From positions 13,578,001-13,642,000 of the forward strand of contig JBHGNT010000013.1 of the NCBI GenBank assembly GCA_043228905.1: a stretch of DNA of 64,000 nt, written 5' to 3'. Numbering within the stretch: the stretch's first letter is position 1; each line of letters opens with the position of its first letter. Positions 8,341-62,902 of the stretch are shown one piece after another. Position numbers and translations under genes: made by a program. The notes beneath the pieces are model-generated. The model worked only from the letters and a program-made list of their open reading frames with translations. It did no database searches and had not been told where the DNA came from. Origin of the DNA: Azolla caroliniana (Eukaryota > Plantae > Polypodiophyta).

Positions 8341-8384
8341 AATTCTCGTCCACCCCTACACCACGCTTTCAAAAAGGCGGCCGT

Positions 8385-8983
8385 AAAGGGGAGGATAGTG
8401 TCACGACATAGTGACGTCAAATACGTAGTTAGTGAGGATTGAACTTTCAACCTCACATCTACAAGACGTCATATTCAACCATCTGGATATGAGCATGTAT
8501 TTATATATAATATACATTGTATATTCTAGCATATATACATTCCAGAATATTCTAAAGACTTTAGTGTATTCTAGAAATATTCTATGGTGTATTCCGGATG
8601 GGTATATTCTAGAGATATTTGTCAGGTATATTCTAGAGATACTCAATCTCAAAACTAGTATAAATACTTGTAATCTCCTTAGTCCCTTTCAGGGGATTCA
8701 ACACCAGTCATTGATACATCAATCCAGTATTATCGTTTCGCCTAATCTTTGTCTCCTTGATCTTTATTTATGTCTTCATGCCCTCACGTCGTTCACAATA
8801 TCTAGAGTTCCTAGCCTTGTCACATCTAGCTCCAAGTTCATCTGTTGCTTGTAGCCCCATCTTGTCTCCTTGATCTTTATCTCTATCTTCATACTCTTGT
8901 GTCATTCCTAGCTTCTCAAGTTCCACACTCTTAGCCCCACCATCCGTGTTCTATCCTAGTCCGTGCTTGGTGTGTCCGTGACA
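8385..8983 (+). mobile_element. PPT and 3' LTR of a chromovirus-related Gypsy element
   Basis: PPT AAAGGGGAGGATAG is directly followed by TGTCACG (8399) ... CGTGACA (8983). This PPT/LTR junction is almost the same as in the chromoviruses at 41237 and 62423. Confidence 0.8.
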
Positions 8984-27375: not shown

Positions 27376-27666
27376 TGTCATGATATAGCAAGACTCGAAC
27401 CCATGACCTTATGCTACATGGGTCGAGCTCTTGATCATTAGACTATACATTGTAATACGTAAAATATTATTTTCTTTTATGTTTTATTATAGAAAATTGA
27501 TGTATATTCCAGATTTCTCTGGAACATTCTAGAAACTTCAGGAGTATTCCTTAGAACACTATAAAAGGAGGGACAAGGCATTATTTCGAACCAAATCGGT
27601 TCAACGCCAGTCTTAAGCCTCCTAGCTACTACTGTACATTCTCTTCACATAATATATATCTTTTCT

Positions 27667-27711
<45 letters not shown>

Positions 27712-30700
27712 CCTCTCACTCACTCTTTCCTTCTCTCGAGAGTTCTTCACCTCTCTTAGTACTAATACTTCTTTCAGTACTAATTCCTTCTCTGTCTTAG
27801 TACTGTTCCTGATAGTTTGAACCGATTTCCGGTCGATCTTCCTTTCCTCCTCTTCCTTTCCTCCTTTTCCTTTTATCTTCTTATTAATCCTCTTATCCCC
27901 CCTAGTAAAATGGAAATTGTTAGCGCTCAGGAATACCAATTTGTTTTCTCGGAGCTCCAGTGCTTAAAAGAGAAATTTGTAGCACTAGAACAAGAAAATC
28001 ATCGCTTGTTGGGGGATCTTCAACAAATAGCGTTGGAAAAACAACAACAACACGGGGAGCTGACACTACGTGTACAACAACTCGAAGCGACTATCATATC
28101 ATTACAACAACAAGGATCAAGCACTCAAGGGATTCACAAAGAACCCAAGATCGGTCTTCCTGCAAAATTTGATGGGACCCGATCACAGTTTAGAGGGTTT
28201 TTGAATCAGGTACGTTTAGTGATACAAATGCATCCTTCTCGATATCCCACTGATGCATCACGAGTGGGACTAGTAGGCACTCTCCTTAGTGGCTCAACGT
28301 TAGCATGGTTTGCTCCATTGTTGGAAAAGGATTCTCCATTATTAAACAGTTTTGAAGAATTTATAAGTGAGTTTAAGGCCTGTTTTGGAGATACTGACAG
28401 CATAAGGACTGCAATCAACAAAATCCGGTGATTACGCCAAGGTGATCGTCCAGCATCCGCATACGCTGCAGATTTCCGCCTACTCGCTGCCGATATCCCT
28501 TGGGATGATCACTCATTGATGGAGCAATTCCGTTATGGCTTACGCAACGATGTCAAGGATTTACTCAAGGATTTACTCTTGACCTTCCCCGAAGAGCCAC
28601 AGTCATTAGCAGAAGCAATTAGTCGCGCGGTGAGATGCGACAACCGCCTCTTCGAACGACATTCAGAACGACAATTCCAGATTCCAAGGGCAAGATCAGA
28701 GCCTACCTATGCCTCAGTGGTAGCGAAACCTTTTCCGAGGGAGTCATATAATGCGCCTCTAGCAAGTACTCCAACTCCGATGGAAATTGACACCACACGT
28801 CGTCGTGGACCGCTATCGGAAGAAGAAAAGCAATGACGCTGAGCAAACTGACTATGTCTTTATTGCGGTGGACCAGGGCATATCACGGTAAACTGTCCCC
28901 ATAGGCCAAGAAGGCAGGTAAACCAAATAGTTGCTAGTTCTGATTGTACTAAACCCGAGTCTATTTCAGTACGGATATCTGATAGTCCTAATAGTACTAA
29001 TTGCCCAAATCTAGCAAACAAATTTGATGTCCTTAGTCAGTTCGAAGAAGAGTTAAACAACTAAGTCCAGCCAAAATAGGAGCCATTTGGTTGGACAGCC
29101 CTAGATCTGTGCAGCCCATTAGTGGTTCCATTCCCTCTAAGCAAGTTAGCAATGTGTTCGTAGCCCAAGTAACAGTTAGTACTAAAAGTACTCCTCCAGT
29201 ACATGTCTTAGCACTTCTAGATTCCGGAGCTAATTCTTGCTTCATGGATAGGAAATTTGCCCAAGCTCATCAGATATCTCTCAGAAAACTCTCATGTCCT
29301 GCCCTTGTAGTAGTCATCAATGGTCATCCCATTGCCTCAGGAAATATCATAGAAGAGTCAGAGCCCGTTAATATTGTCCTAGATAATATAGCATGTGTCA
29401 TATCATTTAATATAATTAGCATCCCAGAACACCCCATTGTCTTAGGATTACCATGGTTCGAATTACATAACCCAGACATAGATTGGCGGACAAGAGAAAT
29501 CTGGCATCAAAAAGCCCGAGGGTCTACTCATGAGATTGCAACGATTTCACTACATCAGTTGCGTGAGGAAGGATGCAAGGAAGAAATGTTCCTCTTCGCA
29601 ATATCAGTAAACCCCTCCAGCACCACTAAAGAGGATTCCACTGTTCAACTTCTAGAGAAGTATCATCAGTATGCCGATGTGTTTGATAAAGTACAAGCCA
29701 GTACGCTGTCACGTTGTTACACGCGTGCGTGGAGAAAGGCGGGACCACGGGGGTCTTGGACTAGGGAGTGACGGAGCGTAGGAAGTCGTGCTTCACCGTT
29801 TCCGGGGCATCCCAGAAGCACACCGGAAGTGACCGAAGGGAGAGAGAGAAAGAGAGGGACCGCGCGCCTAACACCGACTCACGCACACACACGCACACAC
29901 ACACACATGCCGACCCGACTCACGCCCTTATATATAGGAAACGCAAGAAAGGGGAAGCACTCGACACCAACATAGATGCGAATATACACAGACAGACGCA
30001 AATGTATATATATATAAGGAAGAATACATTCCCGGCTTCAAGCTGGTCCGAGGTAGGTTACAGTAGTCGTCAGCTGCCAAGCCGCCGGTCGGGGAGCTCA
30101 CGGGCTTGTCGCGCCGAGCGGGGTCTTGCGCAGGAGACGAGTTGAAGCAAACCCTAAGCGAACATGAAGGGGGAAGAAGAAGAAGAAGAAGTAATGTCAC
30201 TAACCCTAAATCTAACGGTATACCCTCTAACGCAAAATGGGCAACCCTTTCACAAAGGGCGCTCCCTTCCTTTTATAGAACAAGGAGAGGGATGCGTTAC
30301 AATGTGGGATAAATCCCGACTTACATGGGATTGTCTGTCCCGACTTGACTACTCTTCGGCGCCATAAAGGCGCCCTCGTTATTCACACTAAATGTACATG
30401 GGTGAGCACACACGCTGCACCCCGCCGATGTAGCCAATGTTTCCCGGTTTCCGCCTTTGGCCGAAATTCTTCACGACAACGCTTCCTCACCATCGACCAT
30501 ATGATTGCCCCATCGATTTACAACCGGGGAAAGAGCCACCTTGGGGACCGATCTACAATTTGTCACCAACCGAACTGGAAGTCCTTCGAGCCTATATAGA
30601 GGAGAATTTGGAGAATGGTTTCATACGACATTCGAAATCTCCAGCCAGCGCACCCATTTTCTTCGTCAAGAAAAAGGATGGCTCACTTCGGCTCGTTGTA

Positions 30701-33700
30701 GATTACCGTGGCTTGAATAAGGTTACAATCCGAAATAGGTATGCACTTCCCCTTATCTCAAGTCTTTTAGAACGGATCAATGGTGCTAGGTTCTTCACGA
30801 AGATCGACTTACGGGGGGGAGCCTATAACCTCGTACGGATCCGACCAGGAGATTAATGGAAGACCGCGTTCCGCACCAGATATGGGCACTTCGAGTATAC
30901 GGTCATGCCGTTCGGCCTCACTAATGCGCCAGCAGTCTTCCAACACATGGCAAATGATATTTTCCGAGATCTCTTGGATGTGTGTCTAATCATCTATTTG
31001 GATGATCTACTGGTTTACTCGAAGACCCAAGAAGAGCATGATTCTCATGTACTGTTAGTACTAAAACGACTTCGAGAACATGGTCTCTATGCAAAGCTGG
31101 AAAAATGTAGTTTCGGGTGCAACCAGGTGGAATTTCTCGGCTATGTCATTTCCTCAGAAGGCATCTCCATGGACCCAGCTAAGGTCAAAACGGTGGTAGA
31201 ATGGCAGACTCCGCGTTCGGTGCGGGATATGCAATGCTTTCTAGGCTTTGCCAATTTTTACCGGAAGTTTATAAAGGATCACTCAAAGCTCGTTTTGCCT
31301 CTTACACAACTTACTAGGAAGGGACAATCATTCGTTTGGTCTGAAGAAGCGGACATGGCTTTTGAGAATCTTAAACAGGCATTTACATCGGCTTTGATTC
31401 TAGCTCACGTTGATCGAGAAAAACCATTCATCATCGAAGCGAACGCATCGGATTTTGCATTGGGAAGCATTCTATCACAACGAGGTAATGATGAAAAGCT
31501 ACATCCTGTGGCTTTTCACTCACGCAAGTTTGACGCCGCCAAAATCAACTACGAAATTCATGATAAAGAGCTATTGGCTATAGTGGACTCTTTTATGCAA
31601 TGGAGGCATTTCCTAGAGGGATCTTCTCATCAAGTCACTGTATTCAGTGACCACAAAAACCTCGCCTATTTTCAAGACGCTCGTGTGTTAAATCGACGTC
31701 AAGCTCGGTGGGCCCACTTTCTCACGCGTTTCGACTTCAAGATTACATATCGACTTGGGAAACATCAAGGGAAAGCAGATGCATTATCACGACGTTCATA
31801 CCTAGCACCACGTCTCGGCGAGCCAGCTTTCGATAACCAAAAGCAAGTAATCTTGGGACCGGCACGACTGCAAGCAACACAGGTCTTCTGCATGCCCATG
31901 GATTCCCACATTATCGATATCATACGTGCGGACCTGAAGACAGATGCTTTCGCCCAAGCTATACTAGCACAAATTGATCCCTCTCGAGCGTCGTGTTCAC
32001 AGTCGCAACCACCAGGTACGGACTATCGGCAATTTAAATACCATGATGGATTACTCTTCTTTAAATAACTTTTGTATGTTCCTAATGGTTCTTGCCACTT
32101 GCAAGTAGTACAAAACTGTCATGACACATATACAGCTGGGCATTTTGGTAGTACTAAAACGTTACATTTAGTACAACGATCATTCTGGTGGCCCTGTATG
32201 CGACAATTTATCGAGGATTTTGTTCAGACGTGTGATACATGCTGCAGAGCGAAAATGCCAAGGCATCATCCATATGGTTTATTACAACCATTACCACTTC
32301 CAAGCAAGCCGTGGCAATCCATTGCTCTAGACTTCATCACAGATCTTCCAGTCTCTAAAGGGTTCAATGCGATTCTAACGATGGTTGATCGATATACGAA
32401 GATGGCTCATTTTTTGCCATGCACTAAGGAAATCTCCAGTGAAGACACCCGAAATTGTCATGCGTGAAGTATGTCGGCATCATGGACTTCCTGATAGTAT
32501 CGTCAGCGACCGTGGACCCCAGTTCGTGTCAAAATTCTGGAAGCACCTTTTTAAAATGCTCAAGGTCACTTGTAACCTCTCCTCCGGCTACCACCCACAA
32601 ACCGACGGCCAAGCCGAACGAACAAATCAAACGTTGGAGCAGTACCTGCGGTGATTTCTTAGCTATCATCAGGATGACTGGGCAGATATTCTCCACTTCG
32701 TCGAATTTGCCTATAATAACTCTATCCACGCATCAACTAAAGTTACGCCATTTTATGCTTATACGGGATGTCACCCCCGGTGGTGTGTACTTGAAACCCC
32801 AAAGGTGTCCACAAATCCTTGCGCGGAGGATCGTTTGGAGCGGTTACGCAAGATACAAGCAGATTTATCTACTCATCTCCAACAAGCTCAAGAAACACAC
32901 AAGGTTTATGCAGATCGTCATCGACTCCCATCTAGTTTTAACATTGGAGATCGGGTATGGCTACTCCGACGACACATCAAGACTACTCGCCCATGCAAGA
33001 AGTTGGATTATCGGCGATTAGGTCCCTTTCGTATTATAGGAAAGGTTAATGATGTCGCTTTTCGTCTTGATCTACCTCCACAACTTCGGATACATCCGAT
33101 GTTTTATAGTTCTCTCCTTGAACCCTATCAAGAGAGCACCATCCCAAGATGTATTACACAGTCTCCACCCCCGATCGAGCTTGAAGATGGACCTGAGTAC
33201 GAGGTTGCCGCCATCCTTGATTCCAAGCTTGTTCGCAACAAGATGTACTATCTAGTCGATTGGCTAGGATATAGTCCCAACGAGCGTACTTGGGAACTGA
33301 TAGAGAATGTCACCAACGCTCGTGCTCTTCTTGAAGACTTCCATTGTTAATATCCAGACAAACCGGGTCCTCAATCCAAAACGACTCGTTACACTCGTCG
33401 TTTTAAAGGGGGGATAGTGTCATGATATGGCAAGACTCGAACCCATGACCTTATGCTACATGGGTCGAGCTCTTGACCATTAGACTATACATTGTAATAC
33501 GTAGAATATTATTTTCTTTTATGTTTTATTATAGAAAATTGATGTATATTCCAGATTTCTCTGGAACATTCTAGAAACTTCAGGAGTATTCCTTAGAACA
33601 CTATAAAAGGAGGGACAAGGCATTATTTCGAACCAAAACGGTTCAACGCCAGTCTTAAGCCTCCTAGCTACTACTATACATTCTCTTCACATAATATATA

Positions 33701-33836
33701 TCTTTTCTTATCATCTCTCTCTCTCTCTCCCTCCCTCCCACTCACTCTTTCCTTCTCTTGAGAGTTCTTCACCTCTCTTAGTACTAATATTGCTTTTAGT
33801 ACTAATTCCTTCTCTGTCTTAGTACTGTTCCTAACA
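27376..33836 (+). mobile_element. Chromoviral Ty3/Gypsy (Tcn1/Tf1-like), older degenerate copy
   Basis: LTRs 27376-27814 and 33418-33836; TSD ACACT. Gag, PR (LDSGA), RT (YLDD), RH, INT and chromodomain, with stops and frameshifts. Confidence 0.93.
29707..30478 (-). mobile_element. Solo LTR inserted in chromovirus pol
   Basis: TGTCACG...CACGACA termini and exact 4-bp TSD ACGC (29703-29706, 30479-30482). Removal restores [13 protein letters not shown]. Confidence 0.85.
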
Positions 33837-34312: not shown

Positions 34313-34673
34313 CAAAGGAACAAGGGTCATCGGGGGGTAGGTCCTTCATGAGGGAGTAATCTCTAACAAGTGTGTCTCCATAGGTGGCATTGGGAAGGTG
34401 GGCTGGCCTTCGACCCTTGAGGGTAGGATAAAGTGTTGGGTTGGGTGTGAAGAGGGGCAAGGGTGCTGTAGTTGGGGGAGGGGCACAACAATTCAAAATT
34501 TTGAGTTCTAATGCGGGGATTTCTGATGGGGCATTGCAACTAGTGATGTTTGGGGACAAGATTGTGCATTGTGCTCGTATTATGAGGTTAGAATTGTGAA
34601 GACCATAATTAGTGTTATACATAAGAATGATGATGAAGGTGGACGAGACGAAAAAGCACATGGGCTTCCTCAT
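34313..34673 (-). pseudogene. PPO pseudogene, 5' part
   Basis: MRKPMCFFVSSTFIIILMY...MKDLPPDDPCSF joins FAQQANIHC at 19518 across the Copia TSD. Confidence 0.93.
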
Positions 34674-34750
34674 TGTGGTAAAAATTGAATCACATCCCTT
34701 TTTTGTTATGTGTTTGTGCTTGTTATAAAGAGAATGAGATCCTACTTATT

Positions 34751-34792
<42 letters not shown>

Positions 34793-35705
34793 CATGCTTG
34801 TCCTTGTAGATATATCGTGTGTGTGTCTTCACGCTTCACCAAAAATATTGAATTTATGACACACAATGCACATCAACGTTTCCATGTCCTTTCTTTGCCT
34901 TTATGAGTTTTGGAAGTGAGAAAATAAGGAAATTGTATAGGGTTGTGTTCTCTAATTTAAGATTAATCGACAAGTTTTGTTGAAACACGATTCATTTGGT
35001 ATTCCTTTACTGAAATTAATGGTTTTAGTTGGGTGGAATTTTATGTCGTTGTCGTTTTCTTTTTCTTTTTCTTTTTTCCAAAAATTGTTGTAAGTTTTTT
35101 TTTTTCCCCAAAAAAAATGTTGTCAGTTCTTTTTTTTGTCCCCAAAAAAAATGTTGTCCGTTCTTTTAATTTTCCAAAAAAAATGTTGGCAGTTCTCTTA
35201 TGCATCTCACCTATTTCAATAAACCAATAAAAGAATATTACTCTTCAGTCCTAAAGTTTTCACTTCCCCATTATGATCGTAAACTTATACAATAAACACA
35301 TATATTGGTCTCTTTTACTGAAATTAATAGTTTTAATCGGGTGGAATTTTATGTCATTGTTGTTTTCTTTTCTCTCTCTCCACTTTCTTCTTTTTCGCTC
35401 TTCCTTTTTTTAAAGTTCCCCTCTCACTAGTTCTATACCTCCCTTACTCTCCCCTTTTAATTCCCATTTCTTCCTCTATTGTTTGTTACCTTTTCACCCC
35501 CTTAGATTTTTCTAAACACCCACTATTACCCCTTCACATTAAACCTTCTCCCCCTCATTATATTTCCCCTTATTATAGAGTCTTCTCTTCTCTCTTTCCC
35601 CATTTCCAATCATACCCATTACCACACCTCCACTCCCCACTCCTTATTCTCATTTTTCTAAAGCCTCTCCTAAACTTCACTATATAAACACCATCAACCC
35701 CCAAA

Positions 35706-35759
35706 GGCCACTTAATGCTAATGAGCCCCGTAGGGGGCGAAACTAGTTTGCTTGTGGCC
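35706..35759 (+). ncRNA. Hammerhead ribozyme, probably inactive (G5A), in the duplicated Penelope-like fragment (~35410-35931 + 41714-41870)
   Basis: GGCCAC-uu-AAUG CUAAUGA GCCCC-guag-GGGGC GAAAC UA GUU UGCU-u-GUGGCC. Confidence 0.65.
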
Positions 35760-36221
35760 ATTCGCATTTCCCCTATCTCATTGTAAACCCTATCCTAATG
35801 AAGATTAGTTTTGTTTAATCTCTCTCTCTTTCTCAAGGTCATGGGTATGTTTTAATCTTATTTAGTGTTTTATTGGTATGTAGAGTTTAATTTTTAGTAT
35901 TTTGATCCCTTATCTCCCTCTCCCCTCCCTCTGTCATAACTAGACTCGAACCCATAACCTTTTGTTACACGGGTCGAGACTTTACCATTAGGTTATGAAT
36001 TGTAATTTGAAGGATATTATTTTCATTTAGGTTTTATTGGGAAATTGATGTATATTCCAGATTTCTCTGGAACATTCTAGAAACTTCAGGAGTATTCCTG
36101 AAGACACTATAAAAGGAGGCGCAAGGCATTAGTTCGAACCAAATCGGTTCAACGCCAGTCTTAAGCCTTCTAACTACTGTTGTATATCTTCCTTCATATA
36201 ATACATATATCTTTCGCATCA

Positions 36222-36267
<46 letters not shown>

Positions 36268-36503
36268 ACTCATTCCTTCTCTCAAAAGTTCGACACCTCT
36301 CATAGTACTAATCCTTCTCTGTCTTAGTACTATTCCCCAACAATAGTACTAATCCTTCTTTTAGTACTAATTCCTTCTCTGCCTTAATAGAGTTCCTGAC
36401 AGTTTGAACCGATTTTTTGGGTGCCTGTCTGGTCTTTTCTCTCCCTCTTCCTTCTGTCTCCCTCCTTTCCTGCTAGTCTCTTATTTCCCTTTTCCTTCAT
36501 CCC

Positions 36504-37673
36504 ATGGCCACCGTTAGCGCTGAAGAGTATCAATCCGTTTTCTCGGAATTTCAATGCTTGAAAGAGAAGTTTCATGCTTTGGAACAAGAAAATCAACGCT
36601 TGTTGGGGGATCTTCAGCAAATTTCCTTAGAAAAGCAGCAAACGCAACAACAGCATGGGGAACTTGCGTTACGCGTGCAACAACTCGAAGCAACCATCGT
36701 AGCAATGCAACAACAAGGGCACGGAGCACAAGGGATTCATAAAGAACCCAAGATTGGCCTTCCCACGAAGTTCGATGGAACGCGATCGCAGTTTAGAGGG
36801 TTTCTTAACCAGGTACGGTTAGTTATTCAAATGCATCCGTCCCGATATCCCACCGATGCATCACGAGTGGGTTTAGTAGGCACGTTGTTAAATGGCTCAG
36901 CATTAGCATGGTTCGCTCCGCTACTAGAAAAGGAATCTCCAGTACTAAATAATTTTGAAGAATTCATAAGTGAGTTTAAAGCATGTTTTGGAGATACTGA
37001 CAGCATAAGGACTGCAATCAACAAAATCCGGCGATTACGCCAAGGTGACCGTCCAGCCTCCGCATATGCTGCAGATTTCCGCCTACTCGCCGCCGATATC
37101 CCCTGGGATGATCAAGCATTGATGGAGCAGTTCCGCTATGGTCTACGCAACGATGTCAAGGATTTACTCTTGACTTTCCCTGAAGAGCCAAAATCATTAA
37201 CAGAAGCAATCAGTCGAGCGGTAAGATGTGACAACCGCCTCTTCGAGCGACGTTCGGAACGACAATTTCAGATGCCGAGGGCAAGATCCGAGCCTACCTA
37301 TGCCTTAGTGGTAGCAAAACCTTTTCAAAGGGAGTCACATAATGCGCCTCCAGTAAGTACTCCAACTCCAATGGAAATTGACACTACACGTCGTCGTGGG
37401 CCGCTATCGGAGGAGGAAAAGCAACGACGCCGAACAAACCGATTATGCCTTTATTGCGGTGGACCAGGGCATATCGCGATAAACTGTCCCCATAGACCAA
37501 GAAGGCAGGTAAACCAAGTCGTTGTTAGTTCTGACTATACTAAACCCGAGTCTATTTCAGTAGGAATCTCTGATAGTCCTCATAGTCATAATAGTCCTAA
37601 TAGTACTAATAGTCCGAATCTCGCAAACAAATTTGATGTCCTTAGCCAATTAGAAGAAGAGTTAAACGACTAA
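36504..37673 (+). CDS. gag: Gag (coiled coil, capsid, zinc knuckle)
   Basis: PTKFDGTRSQFRGF, LRQGDRPASAYAADF, PTPMEID, CLYCGGPGHIAINC. Confidence 0.93.
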   Translation: MATVSAEEYQSVFSEFQCLKEKFHALEQENQRLLGDLQQISLEKQQTQQQHGELALRVQQLEATIVAMQQQGHGAQGIHKEPKIGLPTKFDGTRSQFRGFLNQVRLVIQMHPSRYPTDASRVGLVGTLLNGSALAWFAPLLEKESPVLNNFEEFISEFKACFGDTDSIRTAINKIRRLRQGDRPASAYAADFRLLAADIPWDDQALMEQFRYGLRNDVKDLLLTFPEEPKSLTEAISRAVRCDNRLFERRSERQFQMPRARSEPTYALVVAKPFQRESHNAPPVSTPTPMEIDTTRRRGPLSEEEKQRRRTNRLCLYCGGPGHIAINCPHRPRRQVNQVVVSSDYTKPESISVGISDSPHSHNSPNSTNSPNLANKFDVLSQLEEELND

Positions 37674-40600
37674 GTCCAGCCAAAATAGGAGCCGTTTGGT
37701 TGGACAGCCCTAGATCTGTGCAGCCCATTAGTGGTTCCATTCCCTCTAAGCAAGTTAGTGATGTGTTCGTAGCCCAAGTAGCAGTTAGTACTAAAAGTAC
37801 CCCTCCAGTACATACCTTAGCCCTTCTAGATTCCGGAGCTAATTCTTGCTTCATGGATAGGAATTTTGCCCGAGCTCATCAGATATCTCTCAGAAAGCTC
37901 CCATGTCCAGCCTCAGTAGTAGTCATTGATGGTCGTCCCATTGCTTCTGGTAATATCATAGAAGAGTCGGAACCCGTTAATATTGTCCTAGATAACTTAA
38001 CATGTGTAGTATCATTTAATATTATTAGTATTCCAGAACATCCCATAGTTTTAGGATTACCATGGTTCGAGTTACATAACCCAGACATAGATTGGAGGAC
38101 AAGGGAAATCCGGTTGCGACAAACCCAAGGATCTACCCAGAAGGTTGCAACCATTTCGCTACATCAGTTGCGTGAGGAAGGGCGCAAGGAGGAAATGTTT
38201 CTCTTCGCAATATCAGTACAACCCTCCAGCACCACCAAAGAGGAGTCCACCGTTCAACTTCCCGAGAAGTATCGTCAGTATGCTGATGTGTTCGATAAAG
38301 TACAAGCCAACACACTTCCTCATCATCGGCCGTACGATTGCGCCATCGACTTACAACCGGGAAAAGAGCCGCCATGGGGGCCGATCTACAATTTGTCACC
38401 AACCGAGCTAGAAGTCCTCCGAGCCTATATAGAGGAGAATTTGGAGAACGGTTTCATTCGGCATTCGAAATCTCCAGCCGGTGCACCCATTTTCTTCGTC
38501 AAGAAAAAAGATGGCTCGCTTCGACTCGTTGTAGATTACCGTGGCTTGAATAAGGTCACAGTAAGAAATAGGTATGCTCTTCCCCTTATCTCAAGTCTTT
38601 TAGAACGGATCAACGGTGCCAGGTTCTTCACGAAGATCGACTTACGAGGAGCCTATAACCTCGTACGGATCCGACCAGGAGATGAATGGAAGACCGCGTT
38701 TCGCACCAGATATGGGCACTTCGAGTATACGGTCATGCCGTTCGGACTCACTAATGTGCCGGCAGTCTTCCAGCACATGGCGAATGATATATTTCGAGAT
38801 CTCTTGGATGATTTTTTGATCATCTATTTGGATGATCTACTGGTTTATTCAAAGACCCAAGAAGAACATGATTCTCATGTACTATTAGTACTAAAACGAC
38901 TTCGAGAACATGGTCTGTATGCAAAGTTAGAGAAATGTAGTTTCGGGTGCAACCAAGTGGAATTTCTCGGCTATGTCATCTCCTCAGAAGGCATATCTAT
39001 GGACCCAGCCAAGGTGAAAACGGTGATAGAATGGCACACTCCGCGTTCGGTGCGGGATGTGCAATGCTTCCTAGGCTTTGCAAATTTTTACCGGAAGTTC
39101 ATACAAAATTACTCAAAAATTGTGCTGCCTCTCACACAGCTCACCAAGAAGGGACAATCATTCATTTGGTCTAAAGAGACGGACATGGCTTTCGAGAGTC
39201 TTAAGAAGGCGTTTACATCAGCTCCAATTTTAGGTCATGTGGATCCGGAAAAACCATTCATTATCGAAGCTGACGCATCGGATTTCGCATTGGGGAGCAT
39301 TCTGTCACAACAGGGTAACGACGAGAAGCTACATCCTGTGGCTTTCCACTCCCGTAAGTTTGACGCCGCCGAAATCAACTACGAAATTCATGATAAAGAG
39401 CTATTAGCAATAGTTGATTCTTTTATGCAATGGAGGCATTTCCTGGAGGGATCTCCTCATCAGGTCACTGTATTCAGTGACCACAAGAACCTTGCCTACT
39501 TTCAAGATGCTCGTGTACTGAATCGACGTCAAGCTCGGTGGGCCCACTTCCTCACACGCTTCGACTTCAAAATTACATATCGTCCGGGGAAGCACCAAGG
39601 GAAGGCAGATGCATTATCACGGCGTTCGTATCTAACACCACGTCCCGGTGAGCCAGCTTTCGATAACCAGAAGCAAGTAATCTTGGGTCCAGCACGACTG
39701 CAAGCAGCACAAGTCTTTGACATGCCCGTGGATTCCGACATTACCAATACTATACGTGAGGACTTGAAGACTGACGCTTTCGCCCAAGCTATACTAGCAC
39801 AAATTGACCCCTCTCGAGCGTCATGTTCACAATCACAATCACCAGGTACGGATTATCGGCAATTCAAATACTGTGATGGATTACTCTTCTTTAAAGAACT
39901 TTTGTATGTTCCTAATGGTTCTTGCCGCCTTCGAGTAGTACAAAATTGCCATGACACATATACAGCAGGACATTTTGGTAGTACTAAAACATTAGATTTA
40001 GTACAACGATCATTCTGCTGGCCCCGTATGCGACAATTTGTCGAAGATTTTGTTCGGACTTGCGATACATGCTGCAGAGCGAAAATGCCAAGACATCATC
40101 CATATGGTTTATTAGAACCATTACCAATTCCAAGCAAGCCATGGCAATCCATTGCTCTTGACTTCATTACAGATCTTCCAGTCTCTAAGGGATTCAGTGC
40201 GATTCTCACAGTGGTGGATCGATATACGAAGATGCCTCATTTCTTACCATGTACTAAAGAAATATCTAGTGAAGACACCGCCGAAATTGTCATGCGGGAA
40301 GTATGTCGGCATCATGGACTCCCTGATAATATCATCAGCGATCGTGGACCCCAGTTTGTGTCAAAATTCTGGAAGCACCTTTTTAAAATGCTGAAGGTCA
40401 CTTGTAACCTCTCCTCCGGCTACCACCCACAAACCGACGGTCAAGCCGAACGAACAAATCAAACACTGGAGCAGTATCTGCGGTGCTTTCTCAACTATCA
40501 TCAGAATGACTGGGCAGATATTCTTCAGTTCGCCGAATTTGCCTATAATAACACTATCCACGCATCGACTAAAGTCACGCCATTCTACGCTTATACGGGA

Positions 40601-41257
40601 TATCATCCCCGGTGGTGTGTCCTTGAAACCCCAGAAGTGTCCACAAATCCTTGCGCGGAGGATCGTTTGGAGCGGTTACGCAAGATACAAGCGGATTTAT
40701 CTACTCAACTCCAGCAAGCTCAACAATCACACAAGGACTACGCAGATCGTCATCGACTTCCATCCAGTTTTAACATTGGAGATCGGGTGTGGCTGCTACG
40801 ACGACACATCAAGACTACTCGCCCATGTGAGAAGTTGGATTATCGGCGATTAGGTCCTTTCCGTATTATCGGGAAGATTAATGATGTCGCTTTTCGTCTC
40901 GAGCTACCTCCGCAACTTCGGATACATCCGGTGTTTCATAGTTCTCTCCTCGAACCCTATCACGAGAGCACTATCCCAAGACGTACTATACAACCACCAC
41001 CTCCTATCGAGCTCGAAGATGGACCTGAGTATGAGGTCGCTGCCATCCTCGATTCCAAGATTGTTCGCAACAAGCTCTACTATCTAGTCGATTGGCTAGG
41101 ATATAGTCCCAGCGAGCGTACTTGGGAACCGATCGAGAATGTGACCAATGCTCGTGCTCTTCTAGAAGACTTCCATCGACGATATCCCGAGAAACCGGGT
41201 CCTCAATCCAAAACGACTCGTGGAACTCGTCGTTTTAAAGGGGGGATAGTGTCATAA
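37646..41257 (+). CDS. pol: Pol (PR-RT-RNase H-INT-chromodomain), in the -1 frame relative to gag
   Basis: LLDSGA, YLDD, EADASD, HHCC, GPF, YEVAAILDSK...YYLVDWLGY. The frame is open from 37646 and overlaps the gag end; the stop lies inside the 3' LTR. Confidence 0.93.
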   Translation, partial: PIRRRVKRLSPAKIGAVWLDSPRSVQPISGSIPSKQVSDVFVAQVAVSTKSTPPVHTLALLDSGANSCFMDRNFARAHQISLRKLPCPASVVVIDGRPIASGNIIEESEPVNIVLDNLTCVVSFNIISIPEHPIVLGLPWFELHNPDIDWRTREIRLRQTQGSTQKVATISLHQLREEGRKEEMFLFAISVQPSSTTKEESTVQLPEKYRQYADVFDKVQANTLPHHRPYDCAIDLQPGKEPPWGPIYNLSPTELEVLRAYIEENLENGFIRHSKSPAGAPIFFVKKKDGSLRLVVDYRGLNKVTVRNRYALPLISSLLERINGARFFTKIDLRGAYNLVRIRPGDEWKTAFRTRYGHFEYTVMPFGLTNVPAVFQHMANDIFRDLLDDFLIIYLDDLLVYSKTQEEHDSHVLLVLKRLREHGLYAKLEKCSFGCNQVEFLGYVISSEGISMDPAKVKTVIEWHTPRSVRDVQCFLGFANFYRKFIQNYSKIVLPLTQLTKKGQSFIWSKETDMAFESLKKAFTSAPILGHVDPEKPFIIEADASDFALGSILSQQGNDEKLHPVAFHSRKFDAAEINYEIHDKELLAIVDSFMQWRHFLEGSPHQVTVFSDHKNLAYFQDARVLNRRQARWAHFLTRFDFKITYRPGKHQGKADALSRRSYLTPRPGEPAFDNQKQVILGPARLQAAQVFDMPVDSDITNTIREDLKTDAFAQAILAQIDPSRASCSQSQSPGTDYRQFKYCDGLLFFKELLYVPNGSCRLRVVQNCHDTYTAGHFGSTKTLDLVQRSFCWPRMRQFVEDFVRTCDTCCRAKMPRHHPYGLLEPLPIPSKPWQSIALDFITDLPVSKGFSAILTVVDRYTKMPHFLPCTKEISSEDTAEIVMREVCRHHGLPDNIISDRGPQFVSKFWKHLFKMLKVTCNLSSGYHPQTDGQAERTNQTLEQYLRCFLNYHQNDWADILQFAEFAYNNTIHASTKVTPFYAYTGYHPRWCVLETPEVSTNPCAEDRLERLRKIQADLSTQLQQAQQSHKDYADRHRLPSSFNIGDRVWLLRRHIKTTRPCEKLDYRRLGPFRIIGKINDVAFRLELPPQLRIHPVFHSSLLEPYHESTIPRRTIQPPPPIELEDGPEYEVAAILDSKIVRNKLYYLVDWLGYSPSERTWEPIENVTNARALLEDFHRRYPEKPGPQSKTTRGTRRFKGGIVS

Positions 41258-41539
41258 CTAGACTCGAACCCATAACCTTTTGTTACACGGGTCGAGACTT
41301 TACCATTAGGTTATGAATTGTAATTTGAAGGATATTATTTTCATTTAGGTTTTATTGGGAAATTGATGTATATTCCAGATTTCTCTGGAACATTCTAGAA
41401 ACTTCAGGAGTATTCCTGAAGACACTATAAAAGGAGGCGCAAGGCATTAGTTCGAACCAAATCGGTTCAACGCCAGTCTTAAGCCTTCTAACTACTGTTG
41501 TATATCTTCCTTCATATAATACATATATCTTTCGCATCA

Positions 41540-41579
<40 letters not shown>

Positions 41580-42070
41580 ACTCATTCCTTCTCTCAAAAG
41601 TTCGACACCTCTCATAGTACTAATCCTTCTCTGTCTTAGTACTATTCCCCAACAATAGTACTAATCCTTCTTTTAGTACTAATTCCTTCTCTGCCTTAAT
41701 AGAGTTCCTGACACCCTCTATCTCTTCTAATCGTCGCCTACACCAAGCTTTGTTTACGATTCGGGTGCGCTCAAATCGATCTTGGTGGTCTCGTCTCCCT
41801 CTCAACTTATCTACAACCCACCGATGATTTCCCCGTTCCGCACTCCTTGTACCGGCCGTAAGGCCAACATAAATAAATGTTGTCGGTTCTCTTATGCACC
41901 TCTCCTTTTTCAATAAAACAATAAAAGAATATTACTCTTAAATCCTAAAGTCTTCACTTCCCCATTATGATCGTAAACTTATACAATAAACACACATACG
42001 CACACACACATACATCCGGAACCACATATAGGTAAACGTGTACACATATGTAACAATATATTATACATAC

Positions 42071-56572: not shown

Positions 56573-57416
56573 TGTCACGGAGACACTTCACCAAAGGGTG
56601 ATTACGGCATAGGATTATGACTCAACGATTACACCGACTTAAGTAGGTTACACGATTAGAGCGCTTTTGTTAATTACACGCGTAAGATATAACAGTAATT
56701 ACAGAACGGAAATCAACACAGAAGTATAAACACCATACGCTCTATTAATTATCCGCTGCGATTACAATGGGGTCCGGGCCTTTAAATAGGTTTCCGGCCC
56801 GTAGTACAAAACGGTGCCTATCGCACCTATTCGGGATCCGTCCGGATCTCGAACGGCATACCGTTTCCAGTCCGTCCGTCCACACTATGCTCATTTACAA
56901 CCATACTTAATTCATTCCTTCACTCCGTATTTTGGACTCCTTGCCGACCGGTAACACATGGCACGCCCGTGGGACAGTACCTTATACGTCGAACCCTTCT
57001 CGGCCCCTTCATTGTTCACCCAAATTGTCCAAAATACTTTGTTCCAGAGTTTCCAATTGTTCTTCCGGTTGTGGTTGTTGCGGCTGTGCTTGCTGCTGCT
57101 GCTGTGGTTGCGGTTGGGACAGAGACTGTCATAACTAGACTCGAACCCATAACCTTTTGTTACACGGGTCGAGACTTTACCATTAGGTTATAAATTGTAA
57201 TTTGAAGGATATTATTTTCATTTAGGTTTTATTGGGAAATTGATGTATATTCCAGATTTCTCTGGAACATTCTAGAAACTTCAGGAGTATTCCTGAAGAC
57301 ACTATAAAAGGAGGCGCAAGGCATTAGTTCGAACCAAATCGGTTCAACGCCAGTCTTAAGCCTTCTAACTACTGTTGTATATCTTCCTTCATATAATACA
57401 TATACCTTTCGCATCA

Positions 57417-57458
<42 letters not shown>

Positions 57459-57692
57459 ACCCATTCCTTCTCTCAAAGTTCGACACCTCTCATAGTACTA
57501 ATCCTTCTCTGTCTTAGTACTATTCCCCGACAATAGTACTAATCCTTCTTTTAGTACTAATTCCTTCTCTGCCTTAATAGAGTTCCTGACAGTTTGAACC
57601 GATTTCTCGGTGCCTGTCTGGTCTTTTCTCTCCCTCTTCCTTCTGTCTCCCTCCTTTCCTATTAGTCTCTTATTTTCCTTTTCCTTCATCCC

Positions 57693-58859
57693 ATGGCCAC
57701 CGTTAGCGCTGAAGAGTATCAATCCGTTTTCTCGGAATTTCAATGCTTGAAAGAGAAGTTTCATGCTTTGGAACAAGAAAATCAACGCTTGTTGGGGGAT
57801 CTTCAGCAAATTTCCTTAGAAAAGCAGCAAACGCAACAACAGCATGGGGAACTTGCGTTACGCGTGCAACAACTCGAAGCAACCATCGTAGCAATGCAAC
57901 AACAAGGGCACGGAGCACAAGGGATTCATAAAGAACCCAAGATTGGCCTTCCCACGAAGTTTGATGGAACGCGATCGCAGTTTAGAGGGTTTCTTAACCA
58001 GGTACGGTTAGTTATTCAAATGCATCCGTCCCGATATCCCACCGATGCATCACGAGTGGGTTTAGTAGGCACGTTGTTAAATGGCTCAGCATTAGCATGG
58101 TTCGCTCCGCTACTAGAAAAGGAATCTCCAGTACTAAATAATTTTGAAGAATTCATAAATGAGTTTAAAGCATGTTTTGGAGATACTGACAGCATAAGGA
58201 CTGCAATCAACAAAATCCGGCGATTACGCCAAGGTGACCGTCCAGCCTCCGCATATGCTGCAGATTTCCGCCTACTCGCCGCCGATATCCCCTGGGATGA
58301 TCAAGCATTGATGGAGCAATTCCGCTATGGTCTACGCAACGATGTCAAGGATTTACTCTTGACTTTCCCTGAAGAGCCAAAATCATTAACAGAAGCAATC
58401 AGTCGAGCGGTCAGATGTGACAACCGCCTCTTCGAGCGACGTTCGGAACGACAATTTCAGATGCCGAGGGCAAGATCCGAGCCTACCTATGCCTCAGTGG
58501 TAGCAAAACCTTTTCAAAGGGAGTCACATAATGCGCCTCCAGTAAGTACTCCAACTCCAATGGAAATTGACACTACACGTCGTCGTGGGCCGCTATCGGA
58601 GGAGGAAAAGCAACGACGCCGAACAAACCGATTATGCCTTTATTGCGGTGGACCAGGGCATATCGCGATAAACTGTCCCCATAGACCAAGAAGGCAGGTA
58701 AACCAAGTCGTTGTTAGTTCTGACTATACTAAACCCGAGTCTATTTCAGTAGGAATCTCTGATAGTCCTCATAGTCATAGTCCTAATAGTACTAATAGTC
58801 CGAATCTCGCAAACAAATTTGATGTCCTTAGCCAATTAGAAGAAGAGTTAAACGACTAA
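57693..58859 (+). CDS. gag: Gag
   Basis: Near-identical to 36504-37673. Confidence 0.93.
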   Translation: MATVSAEEYQSVFSEFQCLKEKFHALEQENQRLLGDLQQISLEKQQTQQQHGELALRVQQLEATIVAMQQQGHGAQGIHKEPKIGLPTKFDGTRSQFRGFLNQVRLVIQMHPSRYPTDASRVGLVGTLLNGSALAWFAPLLEKESPVLNNFEEFINEFKACFGDTDSIRTAINKIRRLRQGDRPASAYAADFRLLAADIPWDDQALMEQFRYGLRNDVKDLLLTFPEEPKSLTEAISRAVRCDNRLFERRSERQFQMPRARSEPTYASVVAKPFQRESHNAPPVSTPTPMEIDTTRRRGPLSEEEKQRRRTNRLCLYCGGPGHIAINCPHRPRRQVNQVVVSSDYTKPESISVGISDSPHSHSPNSTNSPNLANKFDVLSQLEEELND

Positions 58860-61800
58860 GTCCAGCCAAAATAGGAGCCGTTTGGTTGGACAGCCCTAGA
58901 TCTGTGCAGCCCATTAGTGGTTCCATTCCCTCTAAGCAAGTTAGTGATGTGTTCGTAGCCCAAGTAGCAGTTAGTACTAAAAGTACCCCTCCAGTACATA
59001 CCTTAGCCCTTCTAGATTCCGGAGCTAATTCTTGCTTCATGGATAGGAATTTTGCCCGAGCTCATCAGATATCTCTCAGAAAGCTCCCATGTCCAGCCTC
59101 AGTAGTAGTCATTGATGGTCGTCCCATTGCTTCTGGTAATATCATAGAAGAGTCGGAACCCGTTAATATTGTCCTAGATAACTTAACATGTGTAGTATCA
59201 TTTAATATTATTAGTATTCCAGAACATCCCATAGTTTTAGGATTACCATGGTTCGAGTTACATAACCCAGACATAGATTGGAGGACAAGGGAAATCCGGT
59301 TGCGACAAACCCAAGGATCTACCCAGAAGGTTGCAACCATTTCGCTACGTCAGTTGCGTGAGGAAGGGCGCAAGGAGGAAATGTTTCTCTTCGCAATATC
59401 AGTACAACCCTCCAGTACCACCAAAGAGGAGTCCACCGTTCAACTTCCCGAGAAGTATCGTCAGTATGCTGATGTGTTCGATAAAGTACAAGCCAACACA
59501 CTTCCTCATCATCGGCCGTACGATTGCGCCATCGACTTACAACCGGGAAAAGAGCCGCCATGGGGGCCGATCTACAATTTGTCACCAACCGAGCTAGAAG
59601 TCCTTCGAGCCTATATAGAGGAGAATTTGGAGAACGGTTTCATTCGGCATTCGAAATCTCCAGCCGGCGCACCCATTTTCTTCGTCAAGAAAAAAGATGG
59701 CTCGCTTCGACTCGTTGTAGATTACCGTGGCTTGAATAAGGTCACAGTAAGAAATAGGTATGCTCTTCCCCTTATCTCAAGTCTTTTAGAACGGATCAAC
59801 GGTGCCAGGTTCTTCACGAAGATCGACTTACGAGGAGCCTATAACCTCGTACGGATCCGACCAGGAGATGAATGGAAGACCGCGTTTCGCACCAGATATG
59901 GGCACTTCGAGTATACGGTCATGCCGTTCGGACTCACTAATGCGCCGGCAGTCTTCCAGCACATGGCGAATGATATATTTCGAGATCTTTTGGATGATTT
60001 TTTGATCATCTATTTGGATGATCTACTGGTTTATTCAAAGACCCAAGAAGAACATGATTCTCATGTACTATTAGTACTAAAACGACTTCGAGAACATGGT
60101 CTGTATGCAAAGTTAGAGAAATGTAGTTTCGGGTGCAACCAAGTGGAGTTTCTCGGCTATGTCATCTCCTCAGAAGGCATATCTATGGACCCAGCCAAGG
60201 TGAAAACGGTGATAGAATGGCACACTCCGCGTTCGGTGCGGGATGTGCAATGCTTCCTAGGCTTTGCAAATTTTTACCGGAAGTTCATACAAAATTACTC
60301 AAAAATTGTGCTGCCTCTCACACAGCTCACCAGGAAGGGACAATCATTCCTTTGGTCTAAAGAGACGGACATGGCTTTCGAGAGTCTTAAGAAGGCGTTT
60401 ACATCAGCTCCAATTTTAGGTCATGTGGATCCGGAAAAACCATTCATTATCGAAGCTGACGCATCGGATTTCGCATTGGGGAGCATTCTGTCACAACAGG
60501 GTAACGACGAGAAGCTACATCCTGTGGCTTTCCACTCCCGTAAGTTTGACGCCGCCGAAATCAACTACGAAATTCATGATAAAGAGCTATTAGCAATAGT
60601 TGATTCTTTTATGCAATGGAGGCATTTCCTGGAGGGATCTCCTCATCAGGTCACTGTATTCAGTGACCACAAGAACCTTGCCTACTTTCAAGATGCTCGT
60701 GTACTGAATCGACGTCAAGCTCGGTGGGCCCACTTCCTCACACGCTTCGACTTCAAAATTACATATCATCCGGGGAAGCACCAAGGGAAGGCAGATGCAT
60801 TATCACGGCGTTCGTATCTAACACCAGGTCCTGGTGAGCCAGCTTTCGATAACCAGAAGCAAGTAATCTTGGGTCCAGCACGACTGCAAGCAGCACAGGT
60901 CTTTGACATGCCCGTGGATTCCGACATTACCAATACTATACGTGAGGACTTGAAGACTGACGCTTTCGCCCAAGCTATACTAGCACAAATTGACCCCTCT
61001 CGAGCGTCATGTTCACAATCACAATCACCAGGTACGGATTATCGGCAATTCAAATACTGTGATGGATTACTCTTCTTTAAAGAACTTTTGTATGTTCCTA
61101 ATGGTTCTTGCCGCCTTCGAGTAGTACAAAACTGCCATGACACATATACAGCAGGACATTTTGGTAGTACTAAAACATTAGATTTAGTACAACGATCATT
61201 CTGGTGGCCCCGTATGCGACAATTTGTCGAAGATTTTGTTCGGACTTGCGATACATGCTGCAGAGCGAAAATGCCAAGACATCATCCATATGGTTTATTA
61301 GAACCATTACCAATTCCAAGCAAGCCATGGCAATCCATTGCTCTTGACTTCATTACAGATCTTCCAGTCTCCAAGGGATTCAGTGCGATTCTCACAGTGG
61401 TGGATCGATATACAAAGATGGCTCATTTCTTACCATGTACTAAAGAAATATCTAGTGAAGACACCGCCGAAATTGTCATGCGGGAAGTATGTCGGCATCA
61501 TGGACTCCCTAATAATATCATCAGCGATCGTGGACCTCAGTTTGTGTCAAAATTCTGGAAGCACCTTTTTAAAATGCTGAAGGTCACTTGTCACCTCTCC
61601 TCCGGCTACCACCCACAAACCGATGGTCAAGCTGAACGAACAAATCAAACACTGGAGCAGTATCTGCGGTGCTTTCTCAACTATCATCAGAATGATTGGG
61701 CAGATATTCTTCAGTTCGCCGAATTTGCCTATAATAACGCTATCCACGCATCGACTAAAGTCACGCCATTCTACGCTTATACAGGATATCATCCCCGGTG

Positions 61801-62443
61801 GTGTGTCCTTGAAACCCCAGAAGTGTCCACAAATCCTTGCGCGGAGGATCGTTTGGAGCGGTTACGCAAGATACAAGCGGATTTATCTACTCAACTCCAG
61901 CAAGCTCAACAATCACACAAGGACTACGCAGATCGTCATCGACTTCCATCCAGTTTTAACATTGGAGATCGGGTGTGGCTGCTACGACGACACATCAAGA
62001 CTACTCGCCCATGTGAGAAGTTGGATTATCGGCGATTAGGTCCTTTCCGTATTATCGGGAAGATTAATGATGTCGCTTTTCGTCTCGAGCTACCTCCGCA
62101 ACTTCGGATACATCCGGTGTTTCATAGTTCTCTCCTCGAACCCTATCACGAGAGCACTATCCCAGGACGTACTATACAACCACCACCTCCTATCGAGCTC
62201 GAAGATGGACCTGAGTATGAGGTCGCTGCCATCCTCGATTCCAAGATTGTTCGCAACAAGCTCTACTATCTAGTCGATTGGCTAGGATATAGTCCCAGCG
62301 AGCGTACTTGGGAACCGATCGAGAATGTGACCAATGCTCGTGCTCTTCTAGAAGACTTCCATCAACGATATCCCGAGAAACCGGGTCCTCAATCCAAAAC
62401 GACTCGTGGAACTCGTCGTTTTAAAGGGGGGATAGTGTCATAA
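58832..62443 (+). CDS. pol: Pol (PR-RT-RNase H-INT-chromodomain), -1 frame
   Basis: Near-identical to 37646-41257, with canonical TNAPA, SFWWP and KMAHF. Confidence 0.93.
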   Translation, partial: PIRRRVKRLSPAKIGAVWLDSPRSVQPISGSIPSKQVSDVFVAQVAVSTKSTPPVHTLALLDSGANSCFMDRNFARAHQISLRKLPCPASVVVIDGRPIASGNIIEESEPVNIVLDNLTCVVSFNIISIPEHPIVLGLPWFELHNPDIDWRTREIRLRQTQGSTQKVATISLRQLREEGRKEEMFLFAISVQPSSTTKEESTVQLPEKYRQYADVFDKVQANTLPHHRPYDCAIDLQPGKEPPWGPIYNLSPTELEVLRAYIEENLENGFIRHSKSPAGAPIFFVKKKDGSLRLVVDYRGLNKVTVRNRYALPLISSLLERINGARFFTKIDLRGAYNLVRIRPGDEWKTAFRTRYGHFEYTVMPFGLTNAPAVFQHMANDIFRDLLDDFLIIYLDDLLVYSKTQEEHDSHVLLVLKRLREHGLYAKLEKCSFGCNQVEFLGYVISSEGISMDPAKVKTVIEWHTPRSVRDVQCFLGFANFYRKFIQNYSKIVLPLTQLTRKGQSFLWSKETDMAFESLKKAFTSAPILGHVDPEKPFIIEADASDFALGSILSQQGNDEKLHPVAFHSRKFDAAEINYEIHDKELLAIVDSFMQWRHFLEGSPHQVTVFSDHKNLAYFQDARVLNRRQARWAHFLTRFDFKITYHPGKHQGKADALSRRSYLTPGPGEPAFDNQKQVILGPARLQAAQVFDMPVDSDITNTIREDLKTDAFAQAILAQIDPSRASCSQSQSPGTDYRQFKYCDGLLFFKELLYVPNGSCRLRVVQNCHDTYTAGHFGSTKTLDLVQRSFWWPRMRQFVEDFVRTCDTCCRAKMPRHHPYGLLEPLPIPSKPWQSIALDFITDLPVSKGFSAILTVVDRYTKMAHFLPCTKEISSEDTAEIVMREVCRHHGLPNNIISDRGPQFVSKFWKHLFKMLKVTCHLSSGYHPQTDGQAERTNQTLEQYLRCFLNYHQNDWADILQFAEFAYNNAIHASTKVTPFYAYTGYHPRWCVLETPEVSTNPCAEDRLERLRKIQADLSTQLQQAQQSHKDYADRHRLPSSFNIGDRVWLLRRHIKTTRPCEKLDYRRLGPFRIIGKINDVAFRLELPPQLRIHPVFHSSLLEPYHESTIPGRTIQPPPPIELEDGPEYEVAAILDSKIVRNKLYYLVDWLGYSPSERTWEPIENVTNARALLEDFHQRYPEKPGPQSKTTRGTRRFKGGIVS

Positions 62444-62725
62444 CTAGACTCGAACCCATAACCTTTTGTTACACGGGTCGAGACTTTACCATTAGGTTAT
62501 AAATTGTAATTTGAAGGATATTATTTTCATTTAGGTTTTATTGGGAAATTGATGTATATTCCAGATTTCTCTGGAACATTCTAGAAACTTCAGGAGTATT
62601 CCTGAAGACACTATAAAAGGAGGCGCAAGGCATTAGTTCGAACCAAATCGGTTCAACGCCAGTCTTAAGCCTTCTAACTACTGTTGTATATCTTCCTTCA
62701 TATAATACATATACCTTTCGCATCA

Positions 62726-62769
<44 letters not shown>

Positions 62770-62902
62770 ACCCATTCCTTCTCTCAAAGTTCGACACCTC
62801 TCATAGTACTAATCCTTCTCTGTCTTAGTACTATTCCCCGACAATAGTACTAATCCTTCTTTTAGTACTAATTCCTTCTCTGCCTTAATAGAGTTCCTGA
62901 CA

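Follow-up and report, generated by a model that had tools for sequence, protein, structure and literature searches.

The known class closest to the arrangement described here is Helenus, a tRNA-type TRIM, rather than Cassandra. Helenus/TRIMp3 elements, as described by Kojima (2024, PMC10886601), resemble it in possessing a tRNA-derived LTR segment, conservation centred on boxes A and B, and target site duplications (TSDs) of 5 bp; a functional tRNA is mostly absent, and the one plant family comes from Selaginella. The autonomous partners of TRIMp3 were argued to need Pol II and to be unlikely to share long LTR stretches, and "not a few" Repbase LTRs were said to contain tRNA-like pieces (PMC10886601). 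That analysis was confined to TRIMs, so LTRs of the present type may have been met without description. Capture of a Pol III promoter module in the LTR is also characteristic of the Cassandra and Ajax TRIMs, and Cassandra is present in ferns (PMC10886601), while foamy viruses are autonomous retroelements with working A/B-box Pol III units in the LTR (PMC3993851). The present element shares with the Tcn1 chromoviruses the Ty3 domain order, a group I chromodomain, a self-priming primer-binding site (PBS), TG...CA LTRs of ~440-470 bp and a 5-bp TSD (PMC2864245, PMC6317226, PMC3350952); a non-seed plant as host, reported for that clade, is probable here. Lastly, the tDNA barrier of S. pombe cen1, an A + B box unit at a chromatin edge (PMC2040200), is the functional model proposed here.

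An earlier note had claimed that chromovirus LTRs begin with the A and B boxes of a tRNA-like Pol III promoter in antisense orientation. In the window (the whole stretch of 64 kb that was analysed) the boxes were confirmed on the minus strand of all three LTRs that it cited. From sequence comparison we tentatively suggest that in an autonomous lineage of plant chromoviruses a domesticated tRNA gene may serve as a portable chromatin barrier of the Pol III type.

The chromovirus and its self-priming layout

The element at 35932-41713 is a full-length Ty3-type chromovirus of 5.8 kb in which gag and pol are both open; between its LTRs there are 6 gap positions and no mismatch (Table 1). The domains of pol follow the Ty3 order (PR-RT-RH-INT) with a chromodomain added, which is of group I, with the aromatic cage Y, W, Y (EYEV...VDWLGY; residues as defined in PMC3350952). 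It is a likely member of the Tcn1 clade; the few named matches are fungal or from Closterium. At the gag/pol overlap (37646-37673) the two genes share a few codons but not the frame; gag is closed by a stop, and a slippery heptamer is not evident. Splicing, frameshifting or reinitiation might each serve to express pol. The pol frame reads through the PPT and ends in the first LTR bases (41243-41257), as in most close relatives; the relatives P0003-P0021 mostly share this pol end inside the LTR, with C-termini such as GGIVS and GGIMS. One relative of the pol protein (P0023) bears the precomputed Pfam domain PF00692 (dUTPase).

Table 1. Features of the chromovirus, its antisense module and related copies in the window
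Feature	Position	Strand	Remark
5′ LTR, 470 nt, TGTCA...TGACA	35932..36401	+	intact chromovirus; TSD 5-bp CCCTC
B-box-like motif, tRNA positions 52-61	35943..35952	-	
AGGTY motif, tRNA positions 44-48	35956..35960	-	identity 0.79 across 17 families, not selected for
Decayed anticodon-arm equivalent, length kept, sequence free	35961..35977	-	identity 0.32 across families; graded with Pol distance
A-box-like motif, tRNA positions 8-19	35985..35995	-	core 14-20 mean identity 0.70, 17 families
AT-rich stretch, putative TFIIIB seat, without conserved motif	36009..36045	.	sequence, column table
TATA box, predicted sense Pol II promoter	36108..36113	+	33 nt ahead of PBS complement
PBS complement (self-primer) at predicted RNA 5′ end	36141..36152	+	12-nt match
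PBS, complementary to the LTR itself	36404..36415	+	covaries across families
gag ORF	36477..37673	+	Pfam Retrotrans_gag, Ty3_capsid
pol ORF, frame other than gag, PR-RT-RH-INT-SH3-chromodomain	37646..41257	+	stop codon within 3′ LTR
First T4 past the 3′-LTR module, possible Pol III terminator	41210..41213	-	position not conserved across families
3′ LTR carrying the same antisense module	41250..41713	+	G52 at 41270
Second young full-length copy	57127..62902	+	TSD GAGAC; module in both LTRs
Older frameshifted copy, sister subfamily	27376..33836	+	TSD ACACT; module in both LTRs
Divergent LTR with PPT before it	8399..8982	+	module present (G52 at 8445)

The PBS is complementary to LTR nt 210-221, 33 nt past the TATA box. 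The same geometry, a match of 10-12 nt lying 31-34 nt past a TATA, is found in 17/75 LTRs examined, many of these 75 being 3′ LTRs or truncated. Across families the match changes in sequence on both sides, a covariation seen at L003, L008-L011, L014, L020, L023, L033, L035, L044, L047, L050, L062 and L077. With such a self-priming layout a tRNA primer is apparently unneeded. The layout, like the conservation of positions 44-48, had escaped the earlier note. For SM-Tcn1 no PBS was found in an earlier paper (PMC2864245), and self-priming was predicted for the Tcn1 chromoviruses by a later survey (PMC6317226).

Upstream of the divergent LTR (8399..8982) there is no pol match; tandem repeats occur there instead (window 7023-8399), its 3′ flank resembles copia gag, and it may represent a non-autonomous derivative. 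Among the retrotransposons lies a polyphenol oxidase gene (10806-12671, minus strand), the best named relatives of which are from ferns at 42-50% identity, besides one double-length grass entry at 36%, so that a fern is the probable host. The window also holds a repeat family in which a hammerhead ribozyme core is joined by a third helix that is short and palindromic, at 35703-35768 (+), 15534-15600 (+), ~1353-1418 (-) and ~2417 (-). The two plus-strand copies carry CTAATGAG and the two minus-strand copies the canonical CTGATGAG; the Rfam HH9 match reaches only 16 bits (E 2.8). A third helix of this kind is a feature of the hammerheads of Penelope-like elements.

An antisense tRNA-type module at the LTR edge

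The minus strand from 35995 to 35942 reads TAACCTAATGG TAAAG...AGGTT ATG GGTTCGAGTCT, that is, A box, AGGTY and B box in this order at the U3 end of the LTR. Compared with the consensus sequences given in the earlier note, the young copy shows one A-box and one B-box mismatch, the older copy none and one, and the copy at 8399 two and three. When the older copy is numbered as a tRNA, every length between T8 and C61 is exactly the canonical one, and AGGTC occupies positions 44-48. In the young LTR the gap between the boxes is 32 nt, the commonest A-B box distance reported for yeast tRNA genes (PMC11724288); a free search over 30-60 nt placed the best A box 43 or 44 nt from G52 in 38/43 heads, so that the proposed tRNA spacing is borne out. 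A composite of 21 positions with ≤3 mismatches matches the 7 LTR copies alone in the window, against a background of 3/3690 tiles reaching this score, a count that is partly circular because some composite positions were picked after inspection of the data.

To find relatives, metagenomes were scanned with an alignment that covers the C-terminal 159 residues of pol; this gave 77 loci with 57-96% identity, the best 77 of 568 confirmed stretches; two scans of viral contigs yielded no loci. The LTR start could be located in 70/77 loci (7 being without), 4 further heads were dropped (<110 nt), and 6 were left out of clustering (<150 nt). By the composite (≤3 mismatches) the module is present in 47/66 related LTR heads and in all 7 window LTRs; together with 5 window copies this makes 52/71 heads, and the module is found down to ~55% Pol identity, the module-bearing loci all deriving from a single series of ENA assemblies. 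Wherever it was found, it runs antisense to gag-pol. When the B core was the sole anchor, a perfect GTTCRANNC was present on the minus strand within the first ~120 nt in 19/32 LTR clusters, as against 0/32 on the plus strand and 0/29 in nt 131-250, so the motif is not a chance match. An exact RVTGG, an A-box pattern, accompanies 11 of the 19, always 38 or 39 nt from G53. Elsewhere in the loci, composite sites coincide with two real tRNAs, follow a pol end in three cases (L008, L012, L077) and occur in two others (L018, L021).

For conservation, 17 family representatives that have a perfect B core were picked by hand (mean Pol identity 0.65) and anchored on this core alone. AGGTY reaches 0.79 and the A-box core 0.70, whereas blocks matched to the A-box test range from 0.44 to 0.53. 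Identity is 0.42 at positions 49-51, 0.38 at 62-65, and 0.32 both at 66-72 and in the anticodon arm, and four-fold synonymous pol sites stand at 0.36, arm and synonymous sites both being near random. The boxes are far more conserved than the neighbouring U3, a comparison that the earlier note had put forward as a check. As Pol identity goes below 80%, the arm drops from 0.99 to ~0.40, a graded decay such as vertical descent would give; over the same range the boxes remain at ~0.85, partly owing to row selection. The B box lies a variable 11-65 nt from the LTR end, and an integrase attachment site was ruled out as the cause for this reason. No conserved TATA or CAA motif upstream of the module was seen in the column table.

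The CpG of the B box has become TTCAA in 7/20 clusters and TTTGA in 0/20 (15/52 and 1/52 of the heads, respectively), in agreement with tolerance at R57 and a requirement for C56; because the clusters are related, 7:0 does not represent seven independent events. T4 is found within the module in 0/20 clusters, a weak indication, since A4 is present in only 2/20. No variants at 35943-35969 appeared among the 40 of 56 rows listed from four DNA runs, a result of little weight as the region is near the stretch end.

A Pol tree of 79 rows and 159 columns was built by a quick method, with the midpoint root as a drawing aid only. The module occurs on both sides of this root, and its presence changes 9 times over the tree, the shuffled mean being 16.5. 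It is absent from one clade with 100% support (9/9 scored rows), as well as from L044/L047, L050, L052 and L053, and so is dispensable; self-priming layouts exist without it. Partial tandem duplications of the module or the LTR tip were noticed in L025, L032, L043, L058 and L062; one complete module is left in L025, L043, L058 and L062, and that of L032 is degenerate. Derivation of the module from a tRNA or SINE head, as advanced in the earlier note, is supported, and a single ancient capture followed by losses is the likely history. The anticodon column shows 14 different triplets in 21 clusters and so names no source tRNA type; a stretch TGTA is no more than a hint of Thr(UGU).

With regard to tRNA structure, ARAGORN found 0 tRNA genes in the 64 kb window, and Rfam reported no tRNA at window 33000-36500 or at LTR heads (16 of the 77 loci submitted), while it did detect two real tRNAs in L027, at 68 and 65 bits. 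Relaxed ARAGORN thresholds gave 71 and 711 matches, and among the matches listed these were mostly spurious intron-containing calls. The decay of the cloverleaf stems was correctly anticipated; similarity of the LTR heads to a tRNA model did not emerge. Stem pairing in 21 clusters was compared with permutation (p uncorrected): the T stem had 52/84 paired cells versus 51.7 permuted (p=0.54), the D stem 45/84 (p=0.16), the anticodon stem 48/105 (p=0.07) and the acceptor stem 61/147 (p=0.04). Addition of two real tRNA rows gave 62.4% paired cells versus 57.1% in shuffles (12 of 500), a small excess. The element's own subclade possesses a strong hairpin on both strands that is not a cloverleaf, with z of about -3 to -5.7 (including -3.3 and -5.3). 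In this hairpin (35940-35985 and 33425-33480) the pairing partner of the B box is a near-copy of it, inverted and situated in the region of the anticodon arm, a register also seen in up to 5/20 clusters. A conserved RNA fold was ruled out, z ≤ -2 occurring in 4/20 clusters, equal to the upstream control. The residual stem pairing and the subclade hairpin leave some room for an RNA role.

Two explanations can be weighed at this point. The first, that the module is a neutral relic or stems from repeated independent SINE insertions into LTRs and has no function, would be in keeping with the frequent tRNA-like pieces in Repbase LTRs (PMC10886601) and with loss of the module in several lineages. 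It is highly improbable and already largely refuted: the boxes hold at ~0.85, in part through row selection, while the arm declines (0.99 to 0.40) and identity at synonymous sites is 0.36; orientation and place are constant throughout the tree; and fresh captures would have paired stems, in contrast to the T-stem value of 52/84 versus 51.7 permuted. The second explanation assigns the role to RNA, either the sense strand, where U3 would anneal a cellular tRNA as co-primer or for packaging, or an antisense RNA mimicking the tRNA elbow. Ty3 has a bipartite PBS. The kept bases are also the invariants of the D-loop, T-loop and variable loop, and the slight excess of pairing with the two real tRNA rows (62.4% versus 57.1%, 12 of 500) points the same way. 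We nonetheless regard this explanation as very unlikely, as complementarity and covariation link the PBS to the start of the element's own RNA, the variable positions 49-51 and 59-60 break contiguous complementarity, and without the tRNA rows pairing of the T and D stems is not above permutation (p=0.54 and 0.16). The module is a real feature under apparent purifying selection, and it is probably a selected TFIIIC/Pol III site.

Possible roles: transcript, targeting or chromatin barrier

The predicted starts of Pol III, near 36002 and facing outward, and of Pol II, near 36141, are arranged head to head. In the 3′ LTR of this element the first T4 lies 47 nt past C61, from which a transcript of ~110-120 nt is predicted that would take in no more than the end of U3, the PPT and a few final codons of pol. 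The suggestion that the 3′ LTR drives antisense RNA into pol is thus not borne out, with T4 at this distance and the terminator position unconserved. Of 20 clusters, 12 have their first T4 0-70 nt past C61, one has it at 255 nt and another at 340 nt, and 6 show none in the 400 nt that follow. From a working Pol III promoter a short antisense RNA might still arise that covers the U3 end and PPT and adjusts copy number, packaging or reverse transcription. Retention of the A box, a T4 within 70 nt of C61 in 12/20 clusters (at 47 nt in the 3′ LTR of the present element), the hairpin of the subclade and the Pol III RNAs that foamy-virus LTRs yield from A/B boxes (PMC3993851) would all suit such a product. 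It is rather unlikely to be the purpose, however, given a terminator distance that ranges from 0 to 340 nt with none within 400 nt in 6/20 clusters, a transcribed body that is free to vary, and folding at z ≤ -2 in just 4/20 clusters, as in the upstream control. With the body free and the terminators scattered, the Pol III product looks incidental.

Three tRNA genes are present in ~84 kb of unmasked flank. In L027 real tRNA-Asn and tRNA-Thr genes (553-626, plus strand, and 832-905, minus strand) lie 115-400 nt from a 5′-truncated element of a module-bearing family; in L014 a tRNA-Asp gene (128-201, plus strand) and a partial second copy adjoin another truncated element. Integration at Pol III factors is practised by Ty3, Tj1, DGLT-A and Skipper-2, and the module might be a targeting device of this kind, the LTR being a landing pad or TFIIIC ferrying the cDNA end. 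An element of S. japonicus reportedly targets tRNA genes, and Dictyostelium elements do so as well (PMC5006619). The L027 pair of tRNA genes speaks for targeting, but the 3 TSD-flanked insertions of the window have no adjoining tRNA gene or module, the L014 tRNA-Asp junction falls within a tRNA copy and not at the LTR end, and the share of contigs on the LTR head that continue into unlike sequence is 0-0.01 (four DNA runs, 1495-2085 contigs). Taken together, we consider targeting quite unlikely.

The bases that are kept match those that TFIIIC reportedly reads, so that selection looks to be at the DNA level. Upstream of the B box, yeast tauB is in contact with a base, and either binding or transcription changes when +44 to +47 are mutated, with a 5-fold shift in binding for G45A (PMC11724288); C56 is critical, C56G lowering affinity 370-fold (PMC11811891). 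The yeast A box matters more for TFIIIB placement than for TFIIIC binding (PMC11724288). Group I chromodomains have been proposed to direct integration to heterochromatin (PMC3350952), and the fission-yeast tDNA barrier requires the A box and Pol III and works in either orientation (PMC2040200).

A sequence of events can be proposed from these data. The module would have entered the LTR when the head of a tRNA or SINE was captured, once and long ago, and TFIIIC presumably binds it, because the kept bases match its reported contacts. TFIIIB and Pol III may then be loaded as well, because the A box is kept, reportedly for placement of TFIIIB rather than binding of TFIIIC; this would point to a complete pre-initiation complex instead of a site that uses the B box alone. 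The gain would be open chromatin at the LTR edge for an element with a chromodomain of the heterochromatin-steering type, and the predicted Pol II promoter, ~110 nt further into the LTR, would be shielded. The LTR-edge module, as a likely host TFIIIC/TFIIIB/Pol III site, might well be a chromatin barrier for the element's own Pol II promoter, a reading about as probable as its opposite. A barrier or open-chromatin platform is the reading we prefer, on the strength of the heterochromatin proposal for group I chromodomains and the fission-yeast tDNA barrier, and we hold it at roughly even odds; whether a barrier is the purpose of the module seems to us evenly poised. The insulator reading fits the geometry and the published tDNA barriers. 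Against it count the absence of the module from several lineages, the want of a conserved TATA or CAA motif upstream of it, the origin of the barrier data, which are from yeast and not plants, and the ability of Pol III genes to repress Pol II genes nearby (PMC2040200).

If the barrier reading is true, each insertion would bring a TFIIIC/TFIIIB/Pol III site to the outer edges of the element, a heterochromatin-seeking element would stay transcribable, and the host genome would be seeded with very many insulator-like sites. On how elements proposed to aim for heterochromatin stay transcribed, three short motifs with known TFIIIC mutation effects give a handle. If bound in vivo, the high-copy LTRs would greatly outnumber tRNA genes as TFIIIC sites. 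In the family alignment, nature has in effect mutagenized a type 2 promoter of plants, and positions 44-48 stand out there, as they do in the yeast TFIIIC structure.

Comparison with known systems

Helenus/TRIMp3 is a non-coding TRIM of 311-1263 bp, whereas the present element is an autonomous one of 5.8 kb with intact gag and pol; the former is tRNA-primed and the latter has a self-priming PBS, judged by its match to the LTR itself (PMC10886601). In TRIMp3, Pol III has been proposed to make the genomic RNA (PMC10886601), but here a separate sense promoter of TATA type is found, and the module, which points outward, cannot make the genomic RNA of the chromovirus. The Cassandra and Ajax TRIMs differ in having a 5S-type (A/IE/C) promoter and in being non-autonomous, and that of Cassandra drives its own transcript (PMC10886601). 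What the foamy-virus LTR yields is a conserved, terminator-bearing hairpin (PMC3993851), while in our case body, fold and terminator are all unconserved. The S. pombe cen1 barrier is a genuine tRNA gene of its fungal host (PMC2040200), unlike the mobile decayed copy described here.

For the Tcn1 chromoviruses, the published LTR descriptions name TATA and CAAT boxes only (PMC2864245, PMC6317226, PMC3350952), and the term "Polymerase III" has 0 mentions in the main text of PMC2864245 and PMC6317226. In the open full-text literature, judged from search listings, no paper was seen to describe an antisense promoter of tRNA type that is conserved in the LTRs of autonomous plant chromoviruses, nor a Pol III-dependent barrier, known from yeast, in an autonomous plant LTR element. 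Antisense transcription by Pol III has reportedly been seen for the LTR of Drosophila mdg1. The theme of a small-RNA promoter residing in an LTR is already known; its conserved antisense form in an autonomous chromovirus is new to the literature searched, as far as the accessible texts go.
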